A program made the position numbers and the translations under genes. The notes below the pieces were generated by a model. It had not been told where the DNA came from and ran no database searches. It saw only the letters and a list, made by a program, of their open reading frames with translations. From contig CAYWJO010000072.1 in NCBI GenBank assembly GCA_964458565.1, forward strand, positions 1 through 10,075: a stretch of DNA of 10,075 bases, written 5' to 3'. This document shows positions 2 to 9,964 of the stretch, piece by piece. The stretch comes from an uncultured archaeon (lineage in GTDB: Archaea > Asgardarchaeota > Thorarchaeia > Thorarchaeales > Thorarchaeaceae). How positions within the stretch are numbered: position 1 is the first letter of the stretch; each line of letters begins with the position of its first letter.

Positions 2-1423
2 CCAAGTGCAACTTCAAATTCCAATGGTTATGATGTGTTCCAAGTATTTTCTGAATTCTCAATGTTTTTCGATGATCAAACATGGTCCTCGTTTTCATCA
101 GCAGATGCACGCGTAAGTGCCCATGAAAAATGGTCGCAAGAAATGGCTTGGTTATCACACACGGAGGTTGAAGGTATTGCCTTTGATGGGGAATTCTTCT
201 ATATCAGTACTGCTAGGACAATAGATAATCAGGGGAATGCTTCCTTATACAAAGTTAACAAATCTGGCGTTCTTCAAGATTCAGTACTTCTGGAAACAGG
301 ATCACTTACTCACGCAGGTGGTATTGCTCTACATGATGGGATTCTTTGGATTCCTCTATCAGAACGGACATCCTCTCCTACATCACCATCTAAAATACTT
401 CGATATGGATTGAATCTTGATTTCATCGATGAATGGAAAAACAGCAGTGAACAAGGTAATGCGCATTGGGGAGCTCTCTGTATTGAACCTAATCGAGATC
501 TTGTTTATGTTGCGGATTATGGTACTAGTAATCTGTATATCTATGATATTGATGGATCTTTCATTCACACAATTACTAATCCACCAGATTCAAACATCCA
601 GTCATTGATTGTTATTGACGGATATCTATACGGCGGTCAATCTGGTTATGGTTCTAATGATGTGGTAGTTTGGGAGATACTGAATCGAGCTGGCACCGAA
701 ATAAGACGCCGAGGTATTCTAACAACCCCTTCTGGTTTTACCGATAATGCAATCACATGGTTCAACGGATCCTGGTGGACATGCAACGGTGAACCATACA
801 CCTTACATGAATTAAATGGTGCGGATTTGTTTCTGCAGATTTCTGAGTATTATATTAAATCTCAATCTTACGTCTATCCTGGCAGTGTGGTTGAAGGTCT
901 AGTAAAGATGAGCGGAAATCAAGCATTCAATCTTGGATTTGCTTCATCATGGCCTGCAGGAAATCCTCAAATTATCAGTCATGCAAATCAAGGCAATACT
1001 TCATTATACGATGGAATGACTGACTATGATGAAATAGCAATATCATCTGATTGGATGCGAATAGGAGTTCATTGGAAAGAGAACTACTCAGAACTATGGC
1101 TGAATGGCACCCAATCAATTAGCTGGTCATCACCAACCATAGCTATCTCTCCCCTGAAAGCAGGTCTTCAACTCTGGGGTTCAGCAGACGCACCTCTTTA
1201 TGCTAAGTGGTTATTTGTACGCAAATGGTGTGTTTTTCCACCACAACACGGGCTCTGGGAGGAATCTGTATGTCCTAGTATCTCAACCACAACGACATCA
1301 TCCACCAGCACAAATTCCACTCAAACTCCACCAGATACTGGATTATTTGCGTTTGGAGTGATTATTGCCATTACCTCAATTGTCTGTGTATTGGTCCTCC
1401 TTAGGAGAAAACTTCGTTCTTGA
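2..1423 (+). CDS. 5'-truncated membrane-anchored surface protein: DUF2341-type C-terminal region, inserted beta-propeller, S/T linker, C-terminal TM anchor
   Basis: The frame is open from base 2 (PSATSNSNGYDVFQVFSEF...), so GTG35 is not the true start. The N-terminal PSATSNSNG..F..F and the late WLFVRKW...P.HGLW resemble motifs of archaeal DUF2341-containing proteins (from recall). Blade-like repeats: EGIAFDGEFFYIS, HAGGIALHDGILWIP, GALCIEPNRDLVYVAD, QSLIVIDGYLYGG, NAITWFNGSWW. Ends with STTTTSSTSTNSTQTPP, hydrophobic LFAFGVIIAITSIVCVLVLL and RRKLRS. Confidence 0.8.
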   Translation, partial: PSATSNSNGYDVFQVFSEFSMFFDDQTWSSFSSADARVSAHEKWSQEMAWLSHTEVEGIAFDGEFFYISTARTIDNQGNASLYKVNKSGVLQDSVLLETGSLTHAGGIALHDGILWIPLSERTSSPTSPSKILRYGLNLDFIDEWKNSSEQGNAHWGALCIEPNRDLVYVADYGTSNLYIYDIDGSFIHTITNPPDSNIQSLIVIDGYLYGGQSGYGSNDVVVWEILNRAGTEIRRRGILTTPSGFTDNAITWFNGSWWTCNGEPYTLHELNGADLFLQISEYYIKSQSYVYPGSVVEGLVKMSGNQAFNLGFASSWPAGNPQIISHANQGNTSLYDGMTDYDEIAISSDWMRIGVHWKENYSELWLNGTQSISWSSPTIAISPLKAGLQLWGSADAPLYAKWLFVRKWCVFPPQHGLWEESVCPSISTTTTSSTSTNSTQTPPDTGLFAFGVIIAITSIVCVLVLLRRKLRS

Positions 1424-2198
1424 ATCTGATTTTTGTGAAATAGACTGGATCTGTTTCAGAGTATCTGAAGCCCATATTCAGATAGAGTGCTTTCGCAGCT
1501 GTATTCTCATCAAAGAAATGTAAGACGACTGTAGGAGTAAGTTTCTCAAGTTCACAAACAACTTTTTTGACACATTCTGATGCAAAACCTTTCCCACGAT
1601 ATTTTGGATGCGTAGCTACATTACCAAGTTCAGCCCCGTATTTGGTCACGAAATGAACCCCTGCAACTGCTACAATCTGACTGTCTTTTCTAATTCCATA
1701 AAAAGGACCTAGATTCATTGCTTGAGATGTCCATGCTGGAGTACCACAGATACGATATAATGCTCTAAGTTCGTCTTCATCTTTTAAATCTAGGGGCTCA
1801 GGTTCTTCTGATCCCCATGAGTTTACTTCCTCACATGTATCTAGCACCATCTGTCTTTCTTGAATTGGATTTATTGTTTGAGCTAGTGGCCTTATGAGTT
1901 CTAATTGTTGTTGAGTGCAGATAAAAACGAGGTCTCTCCCTTTGAGTGATTCTTCAGAATCTACTATGAGGTCTCTCAAACACTCAGTATTCTCTGTCCA
2001 GAAAGCTCCAGCTAAGAAATCGAGATCCTTGTACAATGAAAAAGCTGCACAGAGTGAATCATCTTCGATTAAAATACGAACACCGCACCAAGGTAAGAGT
2101 TGGGTGCAATCTGCAATCATGATGATATTCTCAAGTGGTTTTTTCGAAAGCAGATCAAGTAATCGTTCTTTGAGAATTTCATCCATCTCGATTATCAA
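1401..2198 (-). CDS. GNAT family N-acetyltransferase (FR47-like C-terminal GNAT domain)
   Basis: Acetyl-CoA motif A (ELGNVATHPKYRGKGFAS) and motif B (ENTAAKALYLNMGF). An AGGTG SD-like motif lies 5 nt upstream of TTG2198. Alternative start is ATG2186. Confidence 0.9.
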   Translation of the reverse strand: MIIEMDEILKERLLDLLSKKPLENIIMIADCTQLLPWCGVRILIEDDSLCAAFSLYKDLDFLAGAFWTENTECLRDLIVDSEESLKGRDLVFICTQQQLELIRPLAQTINPIQERQMVLDTCEEVNSWGSEEPEPLDLKDEDELRALYRICGTPAWTSQAMNLGPFYGIRKDSQIVAVAGVHFVTKYGAELGNVATHPKYRGKGFASECVKKVVCELEKLTPTVVLHFFDENTAAKALYLNMGFRYSETDPVYFTKIRFKNEVFS

Positions 2199-2201
2199 GA
2201 A

Positions 2202-2230
2202 AACACCTATTGACCTCTTTTATATGTCAA
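2202..2230 (-). promoter_or_regulatory. Putative TATA box (TATAAAA) and SD-like AGGTG for the GNAT gene, with a TTGAC-N11-GTCAA inverted repeat around the TATA
   Basis: The minus strand reads TTGACATATAAAAGAGGTCAATAGGTG just upstream of the start. Confidence 0.45.
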
Positions 2231-2271
2231 AGAAAAATGTACCTCATGATTCAAATGCGTGTGTGCACAGC

Positions 2272-2305
2272 TTTAATATAGCACAATTCAAGATTTTAAT
2301 GAGGT
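2272..2305 (+). promoter_or_regulatory. Putative archaeal TATA box (TTTAATATA) and SD (GAGGT) for the DinB gene
   Basis: TTTAATATA at 2272-2280. GAGGT at 2301-2305, 8 nt before ATG2314. Confidence 0.5.
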
Positions 2306-2313
2306 TCTATTCC

Positions 2314-2796
2314 ATGAAAGAAATGGTTTCCAATATTCTCAAAGAGGGTTTTCATGGGCATAATACACATGTCTCTCCAAAGAAAGCTCTTCTCGGATTG
2401 GATGCTGATTCAGCAAGAAAAGTACCATGCGATCGTGTTCATTCTTGCTGGGAACAACTATATCACATTGTTTTCTGGCAAGATTTAGTTTTAGAAGAAG
2501 TTAGGGGAAATGTAGTTGATTGGACTGAAACACATGGAAAGGATTGGCCAAAGCCAGAATCAATCTTGGATTCCTCAGGATGGAATAAATTGGTTGAACG
2601 TTTCTTTAAAGGACTAGCTGAAGCAGAGGAATTACTAGATACATTAGATTTACAAAAACCTATACCCTCATGGAATGACCATCCTGCTTTCAAAGCAATG
2701 TTAGTCTTAGCTCAACACAATTCGTATCATATTGGACAAATAGTCGTAGCTCGTCAAGCTCTGAAAACATGGCCTCCACCAGATGAGGCTGTTTAA
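2314..2796 (+). CDS. DinB/YfiT superfamily protein (putative metal-dependent thiol transferase or hydrolase), 160 aa
   Basis: HSCWEQLYHIVFWQ and AQHNSYHIGQI supply the DinB His triad. Size fits a four-helix bundle. SD precedes ATG2314; the in-frame ATG2299 is an alternative. The extension to 1915 in the ORF track is an antisense shadow of the GNAT gene. Confidence 0.9.
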   Translation: MKEMVSNILKEGFHGHNTHVSPKKALLGLDADSARKVPCDRVHSCWEQLYHIVFWQDLVLEEVRGNVVDWTETHGKDWPKPESILDSSGWNKLVERFFKGLAEAEELLDTLDLQKPIPSWNDHPAFKAMLVLAQHNSYHIGQIVVARQALKTWPPPDEAV

Positions 2797-4105: not shown

Positions 4106-6499
4106 TCAATATTTCGACCTATTGTCTTTAGACTTAGCAATCTTCGCCAAAACCGAGTTGAATCCAGGAGTATGTCCAAACGCAGTGTGCTTGTCGTCTG
4201 TGAGAAGATTGATGTTCCCATCTCTGACCCACCACCCATCAGAAGACCATACCACTCTTGGGTCTATGTCCTCATCAAGTTCCAGTCCTATGCCATTGAT
4301 TCTTCCTCTAATTGATTTGACATCAACCCGGTCACCATCAACTAATCCGAATTCTTTTGCTGCTTTGGGATGCATCCGCACGTACATTCTTCTTTTTTGG
4401 AACCTGTTCATAGGAATCTGTCTGATGGGATCAATAACAACATCAAATGGACAGACATCCAAGGCACATTCTCTGCACCCAATACATCTCTTATCATCCC
4501 ATTCAGGAATTAACAGGCCTGTAAATCCATCCGGAATCTCTAAAGGTTTACCGGATAGATTGACAGCAAGTCTGTCTATCAGCTTTCCGAGTGTCGCTCT
4601 CATTGAAGAATGTGAAGTTGGGAATTCAATATCATGATACTGAATCTCTTCAGGACTAGGAGATCTCAACGTGATAGCTTCATCAGGACATTCCTTAACA
4701 CATTTTTGACAGGACGTGCAATGAGAAAAACTTCTCACACTACCTCCAACCTCTATAGATGTGAACTGTGAATGTAATCGTTCTCGTAATCTTCCAGATA
4801 TCATGATGAATGAATACTCATTGTAAATATCAGGAGTAGATAGTGGACTCTCATCTGGCTCTTCATGGAACGGAAGAGGATCATAACCCATGAGTTCTAA
4901 TTGCTTTGAAAAGAGCTCAATTTTCCCTGATTCTGTTCTGAACTTCTTGTCTGAGAAAGGTATTCCCATACTTCTGGTTCTAATTCCTTCAGGATTTGCA
5001 ATCAATTTCTCTAGAGTGATATCTCTACAATCTTCTGAGTCAAGAGCCATTTTAATTGCATCCAATTCGGAGATATCAAAGAAATCACCGAGTCCTGTAC
5101 GTTGAGCTAGTTCACTCCACATCCAAAGTTCATCCCTTGCTTCTCCCCTTGGTTCCACTATCTTTGGAGCATATTGAACTATTCGATGAAGCTCACTATG
5201 GACTAAGTTGTGATGCTCAAAAATCGTTGTTGCTGGCAGAACATAATCACAGAACTTTGCGGTATCTGTCAACTCTAAATCGATACAGACTTTGAATGGT
5301 ATCTTTTCAAGTGCTTCAACAACCTTGTTTGTATTGGCCCATTGGGTTATTGGATTCGCTGCTTGAATCATCAGAACCTCTAGTGGACTATCTTCACTAT
5401 TAAGAACAAATTCGGGAATGTAAGTTCCTGATGGAACAATAGGTTTTACTGAATCATCCAAATTATCATCTAGTCTTATGGAAGCACCATTGAACGGACT
5501 ATGGTCCGATGATAAGTATTGGAACCCTCCACCTGAAACACCAAGATACCCGCAGATTGCTAACAAGCTGTGTACTGCTCTAGCAGCCCAGGTGCCATTT
5601 GTATAATGATTCATACCTGCAGGCGCAGTCATAATCAGACCTGGGCCATGGGTTGCAAATGTAGTTGCAATCTCTTCTATTGTGTTGACATCAACCCAGG
5701 TTATCTCACTGACTTTTTTCTTGCCATATTCCGAAACACGCTTTCTGTATTCCTCAAAACCCACAACATACTTCTCAACAAACCCATGATTATAGAGATC
5801 TCTGGTGATAATTTCATTAGCGATTCCCAAAGATAAAGCTGAATCAGTTCCAGGTCTAATTGTTGTATAGATATCTGCTATCTTTGCATAAGGTGTCTTT
5901 CTAGGATCAATAACAATCAGTTTTGCACCTTTGTCAATTGCCTCTTGGATGACTCTTTTGGAATGTATACTGGATTCAAATTTGTTTGTCCCCCACATAA
6001 CAAGACACTTTGAGTTTGACCAATCACACAACTCATGTGGTGGAAATGGTCCCACATTGAATCGTGCACCTTCGTATGCTGCCTCAAAACAGATTTCCGC
6101 AATTCCCGGAATCATTCGACATCCAAAGGCATTAGCATATCGCGCTGCATATTTTGGAGCCATGCCGTCATTTCCTGAGCCGCTGTAAATTCCCACTGAG
6201 GTAGGTCCTCGTTTTTCCTTGGCATGATTAAGTCTAGATGCAATTTCATCTAATGCGTCTGACCAACTGACTTTGATGAACTCTTGATTTTCAGTTCTCT
6301 TCAGAGGGTGTAAAATTCTATCATCCGAATACATTCGAAGGACATGTGCGTATCCCTTCGGACAGCAGCGACCCAGAGTGTAGGGGTGATTTGGGTCTCC
6401 TTCAAGTCGAGTTAGTATCCCATTCTCAACATGGACTATGTATGCACAGATATCTGGGCAGTTTAATGCACATGCAGAAAAGAGCATTTGTGTTGTCAT
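4106..6499 (-). CDS. Molybdopterin (Mo/W-bisPGD) oxidoreductase, DMSO reductase superfamily (YyaE/acetylene hydratase-like), with inserted 2x[4Fe-4S] ferredoxin; 797 aa
   Basis: Numbering from ATG6499. N-terminal FS0 motif C10-x3-C14-x3-C18-x27-C46-PKG. RILHPLKR...VSWSDALD. Probable metal ligand Cys137 (AEICFEA). WGTN, VIDPR, IRPGTD, TDTAKFCDYVLPA. Domain IV: SGR...HSQF and MHPKAA..GLVDGDRVDVKSIRG...NINLLT. No Tat signal. ATG6499 is preferred over GTG6568 because the Cys motif normally sits about 10 aa from the start. Confidence 0.95.
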   Translation of the reverse strand: MTTQMLFSACALNCPDICAYIVHVENGILTRLEGDPNHPYTLGRCCPKGYAHVLRMYSDDRILHPLKRTENQEFIKVSWSDALDEIASRLNHAKEKRGPTSVGIYSGSGNDGMAPKYAARYANAFGCRMIPGIAEICFEAAYEGARFNVGPFPPHELCDWSNSKCLVMWGTNKFESSIHSKRVIQEAIDKGAKLIVIDPRKTPYAKIADIYTTIRPGTDSALSLGIANEIITRDLYNHGFVEKYVVGFEEYRKRVSEYGKKKVSEITWVDVNTIEEIATTFATHGPGLIMTAPAGMNHYTNGTWAARAVHSLLAICGYLGVSGGGFQYLSSDHSPFNGASIRLDDNLDDSVKPIVPSGTYIPEFVLNSEDSPLEVLMIQAANPITQWANTNKVVEALEKIPFKVCIDLELTDTAKFCDYVLPATTIFEHHNLVHSELHRIVQYAPKIVEPRGEARDELWMWSELAQRTGLGDFFDISELDAIKMALDSEDCRDITLEKLIANPEGIRTRSMGIPFSDKKFRTESGKIELFSKQLELMGYDPLPFHEEPDESPLSTPDIYNEYSFIMISGRLRERLHSQFTSIEVGGSVRSFSHCTSCQKCVKECPDEAITLRSPSPEEIQYHDIEFPTSHSSMRATLGKLIDRLAVNLSGKPLEIPDGFTGLLIPEWDDKRCIGCRECALDVCPFDVVIDPIRQIPMNRFQKRRMYVRMHPKAAKEFGLVDGDRVDVKSIRGRINGIGLELDEDIDPRVVWSSDGWWVRDGNINLLTDDKHTAFGHTPGFNSVLAKIAKSKDNRSKY

Positions 6500-6561
6500 G
6501 AGTCTTATTTTACCAAATAAATTGAAGCAATAACTGTTGTGAAAAAGAGTGGATATTGAGG

Positions 6562-6640
6562 TGGTCACTTTTGCTCAGAAAGACCATATGCGGTGACCAA
6601 CTAATCTATATTTGAACATTCAATTCCTGTCAAAGGGATT
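6562..6640. promoter_or_regulatory. Divergent promoter region with inverted repeats and a weak TATA-like element
   Basis: TGGTCAC (6562-6568) and GTGACCA (6593-6599). TCTATAT near 6606. TTGAA-CA-TTCAA (6612-6623). AATTCCT-gtcaa-AGGGATT (6622-6640). Confidence 0.35.
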
Positions 6641-6658
6641 TTGCATAGCGTGATTATT

Positions 6659-9600
6659 ATGTCTGAACCTAACGATATCGAAATTCAACATTATTCGAGT
6701 GCCTTAGCCGCTGGAATAGCTGAGATGTTCAACACATGGGATGAGTTGTGGCCAGGTGGATTCACCTCAGGTGTTCCATTCACAGAAGAGCGTGTACGGA
6801 AAACTTATGACAAAATGCGCGCTCTCGCTTTGTTAATAGCTGTTGATACAGGCGAGAACAAACCTATAGGTTTCTGTTCATTGATGCAACACTGGAGAGA
6901 TGAGGATGCAGCATATATTGGTCTTTTGGGTGTTTCTCCTGAAGCATTATCAAAAAAGGTAGGAAAGCGTCTCTTACATGAAGCAATGAACATAGCAATT
7001 AAGAAGGGCTACGAGAGAGTCGACCTACATACATGGGCTGGCAACCTGAGAGCTGTACCACTTTACAAGAAGATTGGTTTGATGTGGAATCCAGAAGCAG
7101 ATGGTGTTCATTTAGAAGGCTTTATTCCAGAGATATTGAAACATCCTTTAGCTGCACCATTCTGGGATGGTGTGACAGAGGCAAATGCATGGTATGATTT
7201 TCAAGAACGCGAGCTAGAGCAAGCTCCAGATGATGTTGATGATCATGGAATGGCAGTTTACAATTACCTATTCAAGAATCAGAATCGCAAATTATCAGTT
7301 ATCGTTGATAGACTAAGTAAGGGCATTACCTCGATTGATTGTGAAACAGAAGCAGGAAGATTGAAGGTTTCAGCGAGAGTTACAGAGCATCTGACAATTT
7401 GCGGTATACCTTCTATGTACTCTCTAGTAATTGAGAACAATACATCTGAAGAGATCTCCGTAAAAGCTAACCTGAAGGGATTTTCAGGCTTGCATTTCGA
7501 AGGTAAATCCGAACTTGAAATTTCAGTACAACCCGATGGAACTCATGAATGGTTAGTACCATTCTATGTTGATTCCACAACTGACCTCTATAGAAAAGGA
7601 TGGAAAACACCTGCAATCACGGTCAATCTAACTATAGGGGATGAAAAATCAGTACTCACCACAGGAATGCAAATCCGACCTGCTGCAGAAATCCTTACCC
7701 GTTGGGGTGAAAGCCTAATTGAACCTGGTTGTTCCACGAAAATCCCGATTACAATTGTTGGATATGAAGACACTCCGATGAATGGTGAACTCAAATACGA
7801 AGCACCTCCAGGTTTGACTGTTGATATCGGGGATAGTGAGTTTGAATTAGAATCTGAGGGCATATCTGGAGCGGTTCTAAACATAGCTGCTGCTAAAGAC
7901 CTCAAGATTGGAACGCATGATCTATGGATTCACATGGTTTTCTCACTACAGCATGATGGAAAAGACTTACAGCTGACCACTCGGAAATTTAGGATACCTG
8001 TATTCTGCGTCACCGGTGGTCGTGTAGCTGTAGGTTTTGATGATATACGACGTAGAGTCATAGTTGCTGGTCACAATCTGTTTGCAAGAATTGAACGTGA
8101 AGGAGCAAGAGCAACCATCCTAGGTCGAAATATGACAGGATTGAAATCGATTAGTACTGGTGGTGAAATAGGTCCTCCATTTGGTTTGAGTCCATTCCGG
8201 GAAGCTGAGAGAGAAGTTGAGATTGAAGAGGACGAACTGAGGACAATAGTGTCTCTAAAGGCTAATCATCCTGACCATCCGATGCAAGTTGAAGACAAAC
8301 TAATTTTCCACTGTGATACATCAATTGTTGAGCATCAGATGTTGGTCAAGAATATTGGAAATGAACCTTATTCAGTGCAACAGCAGTTTAATGGGGGTGG
8401 CGGTGGGATTTCATTCAATGCAGGTTTCTCTAAGGTTTACCTACCATTACAGAATGGTATTGTAGCGACACCTGCAACTGATTTTACACTCGCTTATCCT
8501 GCCATCTCATCGGAACCTGATTTCTTCAAAGAACAATGGGTTGCACTAGATGATGGAGAAACCGCAATGGGTCAAATATGGTTGTCAGATGGGATTGAAG
8601 AAATTCGAGTTAACAATGCACAGGTTAGTAGGATACTCTATGAGAGAGAGATGATTCAACCTGGTGAAATAAGGTGTCTTTCTAAAGTATGGAATTTGAT
8701 GCATGCATCAAGTTGGAAGGAAATCCAAGAAACATGGACACGAATAATTCATAAAACTGTGCCAACCTTACCTGAAATGATTGAATCTCCACCTATATGT
8801 TCTCCAATCAATATCCATGTAGATCCTGTAATAGTACATGGTGAAGCAGATTCTGAAACAAAGATACGTTTCACAAAATCTATACTTCCACCCATACCTG
8901 GTACCCTTGTGATTGAAGGACCAAAGGGTTGGAATATCGGATTGAAAGATGCAGAGGGTAGTACTGTTGCTGAATTAGGAAGATCAATAGTAGTTCCTGA
9001 AGTTCAGATTGTGGATGGATTGGAATATACTCTCACCTTGAAATCTGAAGACTCAGGGAAACGAGGGTTTACATTGGAACAAGGGATGGTTAAATTTCAC
9101 TCTTTCATGGAACTGTCTGAAGATTTCTATATTATCCGTGTAGGTGACTCAACAAAAGATGTTGCCATTGAGGAAATAGAAAAAGAAGGTTTGAAGGTCT
9201 TTAAAATCAACAATGGAGTTATTGAGTTTAAGGTATCTGCTGAATATGGTGGGTGCCTTTATTCTCTGAAGAATAAAGGTGGCGTGGAGCTCCTTCAATC
9301 TGGGTTTCCAAAAGCGCATCCTTTCAGCTTTGTAGATAACTACTATGGTGGAGTTCAACCTCTAATTTGGGATGAAGAATTGGATGATGATTTGACAAAG
9401 GCTCGCACCAACAGGGAGAAGATGAACATATCAGTTTACGAAATTGACAATTGGAGTGGTGTTGAACTAGAGTGGATTGGAACCATTCAGAAGACTAATC
9501 GTGGAGCTCGTAATATTCTTCGATACTTAACATCTTCTGGAAGTCCTTTGGTCTATGTAGAGTTCGTGGTCATAAATGTGACATCTGCCCCCATGAGATT

Positions 9601-9964
9601 CTATCCTACAATCTTAACATTTCCTTCTTTTGATGGAAGCCTTGAAGACTATGTGATGAGTACACGATGGGGCGACGACATGGTCCATCTACGACCAAGT
9701 CCAATTCCTACCGCATTGATGCCAATGACAAACTTCATACGTTTTGGAAAAGGCGAAGATGGTCTCGGAATATTGGTTCCTTTGAAGGAGCGTCGATCCC
9801 TTGCATTGGTCATCAGTGAACTAGTTTTAGCAGGTCCCTTTGATTTCACAACTTGGTTGTTACCTGGTGAGTCTCGTCGGCTCCCTATGATTTTATTTGT
9901 GAATCCTCCTGATGCTGATTCTTTGGAAAAGATTCAGAAAGTACTTGAAACCGCTTTCAAGTGA
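6659..9964 (+). CDS. Large (1101 aa) GNAT-domain protein with an extended all-beta C-terminal region
   Basis: N-terminal GNAT: AYIGLLGVSPEALSKKVGKRLL and RVDLHTWAGNLRAVPLYKKIGL. From recall it resembles the ~1000-aa GNAT family of Firmicutes. Ig-like and galactose-mutarotase-like segments follow (KINNGVIEFKVSAEYGGCLYSLKN). No signal peptide or TM. ATG6659 is preceded by a weak GCGTGA SD-like motif; TTG6641 is the alternative. Confidence 0.88.
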   Translation: MSEPNDIEIQHYSSALAAGIAEMFNTWDELWPGGFTSGVPFTEERVRKTYDKMRALALLIAVDTGENKPIGFCSLMQHWRDEDAAYIGLLGVSPEALSKKVGKRLLHEAMNIAIKKGYERVDLHTWAGNLRAVPLYKKIGLMWNPEADGVHLEGFIPEILKHPLAAPFWDGVTEANAWYDFQERELEQAPDDVDDHGMAVYNYLFKNQNRKLSVIVDRLSKGITSIDCETEAGRLKVSARVTEHLTICGIPSMYSLVIENNTSEEISVKANLKGFSGLHFEGKSELEISVQPDGTHEWLVPFYVDSTTDLYRKGWKTPAITVNLTIGDEKSVLTTGMQIRPAAEILTRWGESLIEPGCSTKIPITIVGYEDTPMNGELKYEAPPGLTVDIGDSEFELESEGISGAVLNIAAAKDLKIGTHDLWIHMVFSLQHDGKDLQLTTRKFRIPVFCVTGGRVAVGFDDIRRRVIVAGHNLFARIEREGARATILGRNMTGLKSISTGGEIGPPFGLSPFREAEREVEIEEDELRTIVSLKANHPDHPMQVEDKLIFHCDTSIVEHQMLVKNIGNEPYSVQQQFNGGGGGISFNAGFSKVYLPLQNGIVATPATDFTLAYPAISSEPDFFKEQWVALDDGETAMGQIWLSDGIEEIRVNNAQVSRILYEREMIQPGEIRCLSKVWNLMHASSWKEIQETWTRIIHKTVPTLPEMIESPPICSPINIHVDPVIVHGEADSETKIRFTKSILPPIPGTLVIEGPKGWNIGLKDAEGSTVAELGRSIVVPEVQIVDGLEYTLTLKSEDSGKRGFTLEQGMVKFHSFMELSEDFYIIRVGDSTKDVAIEEIEKEGLKVFKINNGVIEFKVSAEYGGCLYSLKNKGGVELLQSGFPKAHPFSFVDNYYGGVQPLIWDEELDDDLTKARTNREKMNISVYEIDNWSGVELEWIGTIQKTNRGARNILRYLTSSGSPLVYVEFVVINVTSAPMRFYPTILTFPSFDGSLEDYVMSTRWGDDMVHLRPSPIPTALMPMTNFIRFGKGEDGLGILVPLKERRSLALVISELVLAGPFDFTTWLLPGESRRLPMILFVNPPDADSLEKIQKVLETAFK

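Follow-up and report, generated by a model that had tools for sequence, protein, structure and literature searches.

Enzymes of the MopB superfamily are among the best-studied redox enzymes, and in their canonical wiring the FS0 iron-sulfur cluster is connected to a separate β subunit or to a terminal fusion. The locus described here raises the question of whether a ferredoxin-like module lodged inside one of the catalytic domains could take the place of such a subunit. The locus lies in a stretch of 10,075 nucleotides (hereafter, the window), which is the whole of contig CAYWJO010000072.1 (C72) of an uncultured archaeon of the family Thorarchaeaceae (assembly GCA_964458565.1). The genome, of 3.73 Mb in 93 contigs, comes from salt-marsh metagenomes, and the closest database proteins to the window's products belong to metagenome-assembled genomes (MAGs) that NCBI names Candidatus Thorarchaeota. 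On its reverse strand the window carries a gene for a putative enzyme with a molybdenum or tungsten bis(pyranopterin guanine dinucleotide) cofactor (Mo/W-bisPGD), whose domain IV is interrupted by two ferredoxin-type cysteine motifs. We found that this architecture is real and, in the sets searched, restricted to one Asgard family. We also consider it probable, with some reserve, that in this cytoplasmic single-gene oxidoreductase the lineage-specific insert, predicted to hold two [4Fe-4S] clusters, does the job of a separate Fer4_11 β subunit.

Residue numbers below are those of the protein P0001, counted from the GTG at 6568; a preliminary description of this DNA had counted from an ATG 23 codons downstream. 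The true start of the gene is likely the ATG at 6499, or that at 6487, which gives the database form of the protein (P0007, 793 aa). Pfam matches were found for Molybdop_Fe4S4 (residues 31-81), Molybdopterin (84-489), Fer4_7 (616-710) and Molydop_binding (723-806). Of the Molydop_binding profile only positions 24-109 are matched, and the Fer4 match thus splits the domain, as the preliminary description had predicted. Its landmarks also match the sequence: the first strand of domain IV with H576 (H599 here), the MHPKAA motif from residue 732 with H710 (H733 here), and two in-frame cysteine motifs in between, whose coordinates (Table 1) are exact. The Fer4_7 match spans both motifs; its score is 28.4 bits when the full-length protein is searched and 35.1 bits for the insert by itself (cut-off 27). 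The insert alone also exceeds the Pfam cut-offs of Fer4, Fer4_10 and Fer4_16, and by hidden Markov model score it belongs to the dicluster ferredoxin domains. It has no match to PF13247 (Fer4_11) and contains eight cysteines only, versus sixteen in four motifs, and is thus not of the Fer4_11 β type.

Table 1. Positions of the features of the window, those of the MopB gene first.
Feature	Position	Strand	Remarks
MopB gene, putative Mo/W-bisPGD enzyme	4106-6568	-	open for 820 codons from GTG 6568, no internal stop
FS0 [4Fe-4S] motif, domain I	6362-6472	-	C33-x3-C37-x3-C41 ... C69, then conserved K71
Cys160, metal-ligand position	6089-6091	-	aligns with Cys141 of acetylene hydratase 2e7z
First strand of domain IV, HSQ motif (residues 587-602, ends HSQF)	4763-4810	-	precedes the insert; strand E560-565 in P0007 numbering
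Inserted ferredoxin-like module (residues ~603-728)	4385-4762	-	
Cluster motif 1, CxxCxxCxxxCP	4685-4720	-	C617, C620, C623, C627, P628
66-aa inter-motif spacer	4487-4684	-	two predicted helices; lowest conservation in the protein; invariant R, L, P, P, W
Cluster motif 2, CxxCxxCxxxxCP	4448-4486	-	C695, C698, C701, C706, P707
Remainder of domain IV and stop codon	4106-4384	-	Molydop_binding profile positions 24-109
Surface protein, DUF6454-like domain	2-1423	+	Thr/Ser-rich stalk, C-terminal hydrophobic anchor (predicted)
GNAT acetyltransferase	1401-2198	-	
DinB_2 protein	within 1915-2796	+	293-aa open reading frame; DinB_2 match confined to residues 158-276
Anchored surface protein, 416 aa	2810-4060	-	repeated beta-rich modules, C-terminal hydrophobic anchor (predicted)
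1107-aa protein, N-terminal GNAT domain (38-146)	6641-9964	+	divergent from the MopB gene

The size of the insertion was obtained from an alignment of 144 sequences (A1), comprising 54 family members and 90 relatives. In the family the domain IV loop at this place is 129-144 residues long (median 131), in the relatives 13-19 (median 18), and the net insertion is therefore ~113 aa, in agreement with the ferredoxin-type module of ~110 aa in a domain IV loop that had first been proposed. When the protein is aligned with acetylene hydratase (2e7z), residues 590-598 correspond to chain residues 599-606 and residue 731 to chain residue 628, leaving ~22 aa there against ~133 aa here.

The depth of the 10-kb metagenome contig that makes up the window is low (about 2-8), and the architecture could have been produced by a chimeric assembly, or by taking two genes as one. 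A chimera had also been named in the preliminary description as a finding that would refute the claim. Contigs of four other salt-marsh runs match the gene at 99% or more and show neither joints nor loose ends. X4 record 14 and X5 record 19 span the junction near 4385, X2 record 4 and X4 record 15 the one near 4762. The frame is open without stops, and more than 110 independently assembled orthologues share the architecture, some on megabase contigs, including closed ones of 2.6 and 3.2 Mb. The bridging contigs and the orthologues refute an artefact, whose probability we regard as negligible: the insert architecture is real and no chimera.

Conservation of the cysteines among homologues, whose lack had likewise been named as a refutation, was followed in 114 orthologues that are 63-71% identical. 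Each of the eight cysteines of the insert is present in 114 of 114, so the insert is not a chance occurrence, and the two prolines in 107 and 109 of them. The insert is 42-59% identical, versus 63-71% for the core, and has about 20 invariant columns, five of which are in the spacer.

Distribution was assessed in four sets: the 150 best 50%-identity representatives, 301 Asgard genomes, the 30 nearest ESM Atlas models and the PDB. When 1.84 billion 50%-identity representatives were searched exhaustively with HMMER, the insert form appeared as one full-length cluster plus two fragments; this cluster scored 1305 bits and the protein ranked next, which is 36% identical, 436 bits. Among the other 147 of the best representatives, Fer4 motifs occur in that domain IV loop in none, after domain IV in one and at the N-terminus in another; Fer4 families are likewise absent from all 30 Atlas models. 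Within the Asgard genomes, matches covering the insert (53-71% identical) were confined to the window's own family, where they occur in ~45 of 77 genomes, and the relatives in other Asgard families are 28-36% identical, with the match stopping before the insert. In these sets the insert form is restricted to one Asgard family, called Thorarchaeota in NCBI records. A few records name insert-bearing MAGs Odin-, Loki- or Hermodarchaeota, labels to be read as tentative.

The remainder of the protein is a MopB core. The Pfam scores of Molybdop_Fe4S4 (35.2 bits, cut-off 22.7), Molybdopterin (165 bits, cut-off 24) and Molydop_binding (61.3 bits, cut-off 26.8) are all above the curated cut-offs and, together with the four-domain MopB fold of an AlphaFold2 (AF2) model, place it in the superfamily. 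The four-cysteine FS0 motif, the bridging lysine and a protein metal ligand are all present: C33, C37 and C41 are kept in every row with a residue there (109-110 of 114, the others being gaps), C69 and K71 in 114 of 114, and Cys160 in 114 of 114 family members and in 90 of 90 relatives. No twin-arginine (Tat) signal was found in the protein, whose N-terminus leads directly into the FS0 motif. As judged from its sequence, we take it to be a putative cytoplasmic Mo/W-bisPGD (MopB) enzyme; the sole support for Mo/W-bisPGD binding in the genome is a MobA-like gene (E 3e-13, below cut-off). Only three MopB genes are present in that genome, this one included. The FS0 spacing is Cx3Cx3C (6446-6472, - strand) instead of the usual Cx2Cx3C; in A1 there is a sub-clade with Cx3Cx3C which often has an Asp two residues past the second Cys, and this Asp is invariant in the insert family. 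Selenocysteine was considered and discarded, the in-frame stops reported for two orthologues being their terminal stop codons.

We compared the enzyme with characterised members of the superfamily. Among solved enzymes, acetylene hydratase from Pelobacter acetylenicus (2e7z) comes closest both in sequence (E 2e-63, 218 bits) and in fold (Foldseek E 3.5e-47). Like ours, it is a cytoplasmic enzyme made of one chain and has four domains, FS0 and a Cys as metal ligand. It differs in being non-redox, in its identity of ~23%, in the short loop at the insert site and in an FS0 spacing of Cx2Cx3C. Its catalytic Asp13 aligns with Ala34 (Ala in 103 of 109 covering rows; an alternative alignment register puts Pro38 at that position), and this, together with the two extra cluster motifs, led us to reject an assignment to acetylene hydratase. 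An assignment to formate dehydrogenase alpha (TIGR01591) was rejected with 272 bits against a cut-off of 666, the ligand being followed by Phe161 (112 of 114) without a Sec/Cys-His dyad. Thiosulfate/polysulfide reductase PhsA/PsrA (NF012032) was rejected with 218 bits against 694, no Tat signal and no adjacent β/NrfD gene.

That the best solved match is a non-redox enzyme lends some weight to a reading in which the insert clusters lie off the path to the metal centre, in a structural, redox-sensing or regulatory module, or in which the protein is itself a non-redox hydratase like acetylene hydratase. Such a role would suit the faster evolution of the insert relative to the core, and the geometry of its clusters is conjectural. 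We nevertheless find it improbable, given that the gain and strict retention of eight cluster ligands are hard to account for in a non-redox enzyme, that the catalytic Asp of the hydratase is replaced as described above, and that relatives of our enzyme have electron-transfer β subunits.

In the AF2 model the mean predicted local distance difference test score (pLDDT) is 89.8 for the whole protein, above 90 for the core and 86-97 for the rest of domain IV, so that the insert leaves the fold undisrupted; target-normalised TM-scores reach 0.8 against solved MopB enzymes and 0.96 against an Atlas MopB cluster. The predicted order of elements in the insert (strand, cluster loop with helix, strand, two helices, strand, cluster loop, strand) is ferredoxin-like in the model, with a helical sub-insertion. 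Modelled alone from 110 sequences, the insert reached a pLDDT of 64.8, and a Foldseek search with this model returned nothing below E 0.83, its weak top rows being all Fe-S proteins. A split-chain complex prediction (core, rest of domain IV, insert and three 4Fe-4S clusters) scored 0.24 against a mark of 0.32, which speaks neither for nor against a wire. Thus, of the three [4Fe-4S] clusters in one chain claimed in the preliminary description, the three four-cysteine motifs are borne out, and the insert clusters are predicted from motifs only.

We also searched for the origin of the insert. A profile search of proteins of 69-249 aa for a free-standing homologue found only contig-end fragments of the insert family itself, and a PDB profile search gave motif-level Fer4 matches only (E 1.5e-5 or weaker); hence no donor has been identified.

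In order to place this architecture among the ways in which relatives are wired, we built a tree with FastTree, and this phylogeny, with the search for further homologues bearing the insertion, had also been proposed beforehand. All of these homologues fall into one family, whose long stem has full support; the clade that encloses it, likewise with full support, also contains P0128 and a further 22 representatives. P0128, 36% identical and without insert, is followed by a Fer4_11 gene and then an NrfD/DmsC gene; P0136 has an overlapping downstream Fer4_11 gene, which encodes a classic four-cluster protein; and P0164 is a MopB protein with a complete C-terminal Fer4_11 domain. In the neighbouring clade, the Asgard relatives L032, L035, L036 and L039 have directly downstream a Fer4_11 gene of 138-167 aa with 16-18 cysteines. 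A further variant was found in a genome of the window's own family, where a MopB protein of 815 aa, 31% identical to ours (P0293; L042:1575-4022, + strand, G281), ends in a truncated Fer4_11 remnant with eight cysteines, which is a second way to a short in-chain wire.

By contrast with these relatives, the gene that carries the insert proved monocistronic in 13 genomes, from 12 genera; its upstream neighbours differ and its downstream neighbours are convergent. No Fe-S, β or membrane subunit gene and no conserved operon partner was found beside it in these 13 genomes, so that what had been remarked for the window extends to 12 others. The four Fer4_11 genes of the window's genome adjoin three aldehyde:ferredoxin oxidoreductase (AOR) genes and one FlpD gene, and no MopB gene. 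A monocistronic gene with an insert, in a group several of whose members have a β gene or a fusion, supports a built-in replacement of the β subunit. As observed separately in the same genome (G000), on contigs C28 (L047-L049) and C4 (L050), the three AOR genes are each preceded by a Fer4_11 gene of 160-174 aa, and the fourth Fer4_11 gene adjoins an FlpD/ferredoxin fusion.

An electron-wire role of the insert is plausible on these grounds. As homology suggests, the substrate would react at a metal held by Cys160 and two pterins, and electrons would pass from there through a pterin and Lys71 to FS0 (C33, C37, C41, C69). The motifs point to a further transfer from FS0 to two insert clusters, probably cross-ligated as usual in dicluster ferredoxins (C617/C620/C623/C706 and C695/C698/C701/C627); a soluble carrier, ferredoxin for example, would receive electrons from these clusters or supply them. 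The conserved helical spacer might hold the module against the core or provide a docking face.

Several observations weigh against a built-in wire that replaces the β subunit. The spacing of motif 1 is canonical and that of motif 2 is not, with an extra residue before its last cysteine which is kept in all 110 distinct insert sequences. The pLDDT of the insert within the whole model is 39-79, and below 50 in the cluster loops, and the closeness of the insert clusters to FS0 or the pterins is conjectural. An hhalign comparison of the insert with the β subunits of relatives aligned 24 columns with a probability of 83%, a likeness at the level of motifs only, and descent of the insert from a β subunit is therefore conjecture. 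Two relatives, P0134 and P0137, have no partner gene beside them and no cluster motif other than FS0, which indicates that a MopB enzyme of this clade can work without extra clusters. Finally, a partner may be encoded elsewhere in the genome.

This last point leads to a different use of the insert, as a two-cluster adaptor that would dock the enzyme onto a larger complex (a polyferredoxin, or an Hdr/FlpD-type or hydrogenase module) encoded at another place. FlpD-linked and other Fe-S proteins are indeed encoded elsewhere in the window's genome, and the spacer contains invariant residues of surface type. Set against this, none of the 13 genomes has a conserved partner gene beside the MopB gene, and an adaptor would overlap with the explanation we favour, since electrons would still pass through the insert; on balance we hold it to be rather unlikely.

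The position of the insert also bears on the path that electrons would take. Domain IV covers the pterins in MopB structures, and the insertion point follows its HSQ segment; the insert clusters might then approach the pterins from the domain IV side and provide a second electron route in which FS0 is bypassed. We regard this as very improbable: the strict conservation of FS0 and Lys71 speaks for use of the canonical route, and to our knowledge no MopB enzyme uses a route that bypasses FS0. The stronger proposal, that this is the first self-wired MopB enzyme with the module in domain IV, and that it has an FS0-independent route or a direct ferredoxin-coupled low-potential chemistry without characterised counterpart, appears to us a slim prospect. 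The explanation we retain is the built-in β-subunit replacement, with electrons passing through FS0.

The novelty of this arrangement should be stated with care. Extra Fe-S domains in single-chain MopB enzymes are already known, and only the internal position of the module is new. The three-subunit Psr/Phs/Dms enzymes (e.g. 2vpw) share the catalytic fold and have a four-cluster β subunit of the Fer4_11 type and an NrfD anchor; P0128, the closest relative lacking the insert, has exactly this gene order, likewise without a Tat signal, whereas our enzyme has no β/NrfD gene, two extra clusters rather than four, and a generic module of the Fer4_7 type rather than Fer4_11. The NAD-dependent formate dehydrogenases FdsA/FdhA (6tg9, 7vw6) and ForC/YjgC (8rqz) combine a MopB core and an Fe-S wire in one chain, but there the Fe-S domains are N-terminal (the alignment begins at chain residue 255-371), and in P0164 and P0293 the Fe-S part comes after domain IV, while here domain IV itself is interrupted. 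A further lead for MopB proteins with fused Fe-S domains is the ActB subunit of alternative complex III. A feature-based search of the ESM Atlas, with scores not exceeding 0.79, yielded no more than leads.

Among the solved (PDB) and described MopB enzymes covered by our searches, we found none with a ferredoxin inside domain IV, in accordance with the preliminary description, to which no characterised enzyme with such an architecture was known. A parallel is a flavoprotein in which a ferredoxin-like domain is inserted in another domain and serves as electron exit and docking site (PMC12350162); its host is not a MopB protein, and it shows no sequence relation to our insert beyond the Fer4 motifs. 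The literature searched on Thorarchaeota molybdoenzymes, which did not include two key Thorarchaeota genome papers, contained nothing on the gene or its architecture. For Asgard MAGs, a survey of the superfamily (PMC10100899) counts seven homologues of the 'AH family', with no mention of insertions, and a review (PMC6646929) reports, secondhand, that Thorarchaeota have a 'thiosulfate reductase'. This gene may be the one meant by either label.

The window encodes six plausible genes (Table 1). The gene of the 1107-aa GNAT protein lies upstream of the MopB gene in 10 of 13 genomes, directly adjacent only in some; for its remaining ~950 residues we found no confident family, only FixG_C and Acetyltransf_10 below threshold. 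The first half of the 293-aa reading frame with the DinB_2 match overlaps the GNAT gene on the opposite strand, and the orthologue in L005 is only 155 aa long; the actual DinB gene probably begins much later. We did not find the gene of the 416-aa surface protein adjoining the MopB gene in other genomes. The neighbours that do recur (the large GNAT protein, DinB, a 180-aa protein, a CitMHS-type permease and an M29 peptidase) look like plain synteny. In 7 of 13 genomes (among loci L019-L030) the MopB gene is followed within a few genes by a convergent gene for a CitMHS/ArsB-type anion permease, which may be a pointer to an anionic substrate or mere synteny. One locus (L025) has, ~1.4 kb downstream of the intact MopB copy, a fragment (G155:C3:430952-431473) 69% identical to MopB residues 85-257, with two in-frame TGA codons and flanked by a duplicated CitMHS permease gene; it looks like a local duplication with decay.

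If our interpretation is correct, an internal ferredoxin module in the cofactor-capping domain would be a third, independent solution to the wiring of MopB enzymes, next to the separate β subunit and the terminal fusion. The occurrence of a separate β subunit, a C-terminal fusion and an internal insert in one clade would then make this a natural experiment in the rebuilding of electron-transfer chains, and a compact three-cluster enzyme in a single chain would be a convenient object for electrochemistry. Since the enzyme is one of only three MopB proteins of its genome and an identity of 63-71% is held across genera, it is probably the sign of a redox reaction so far overlooked in the metabolism of a major Asgard lineage that inhabits anoxic sediments.

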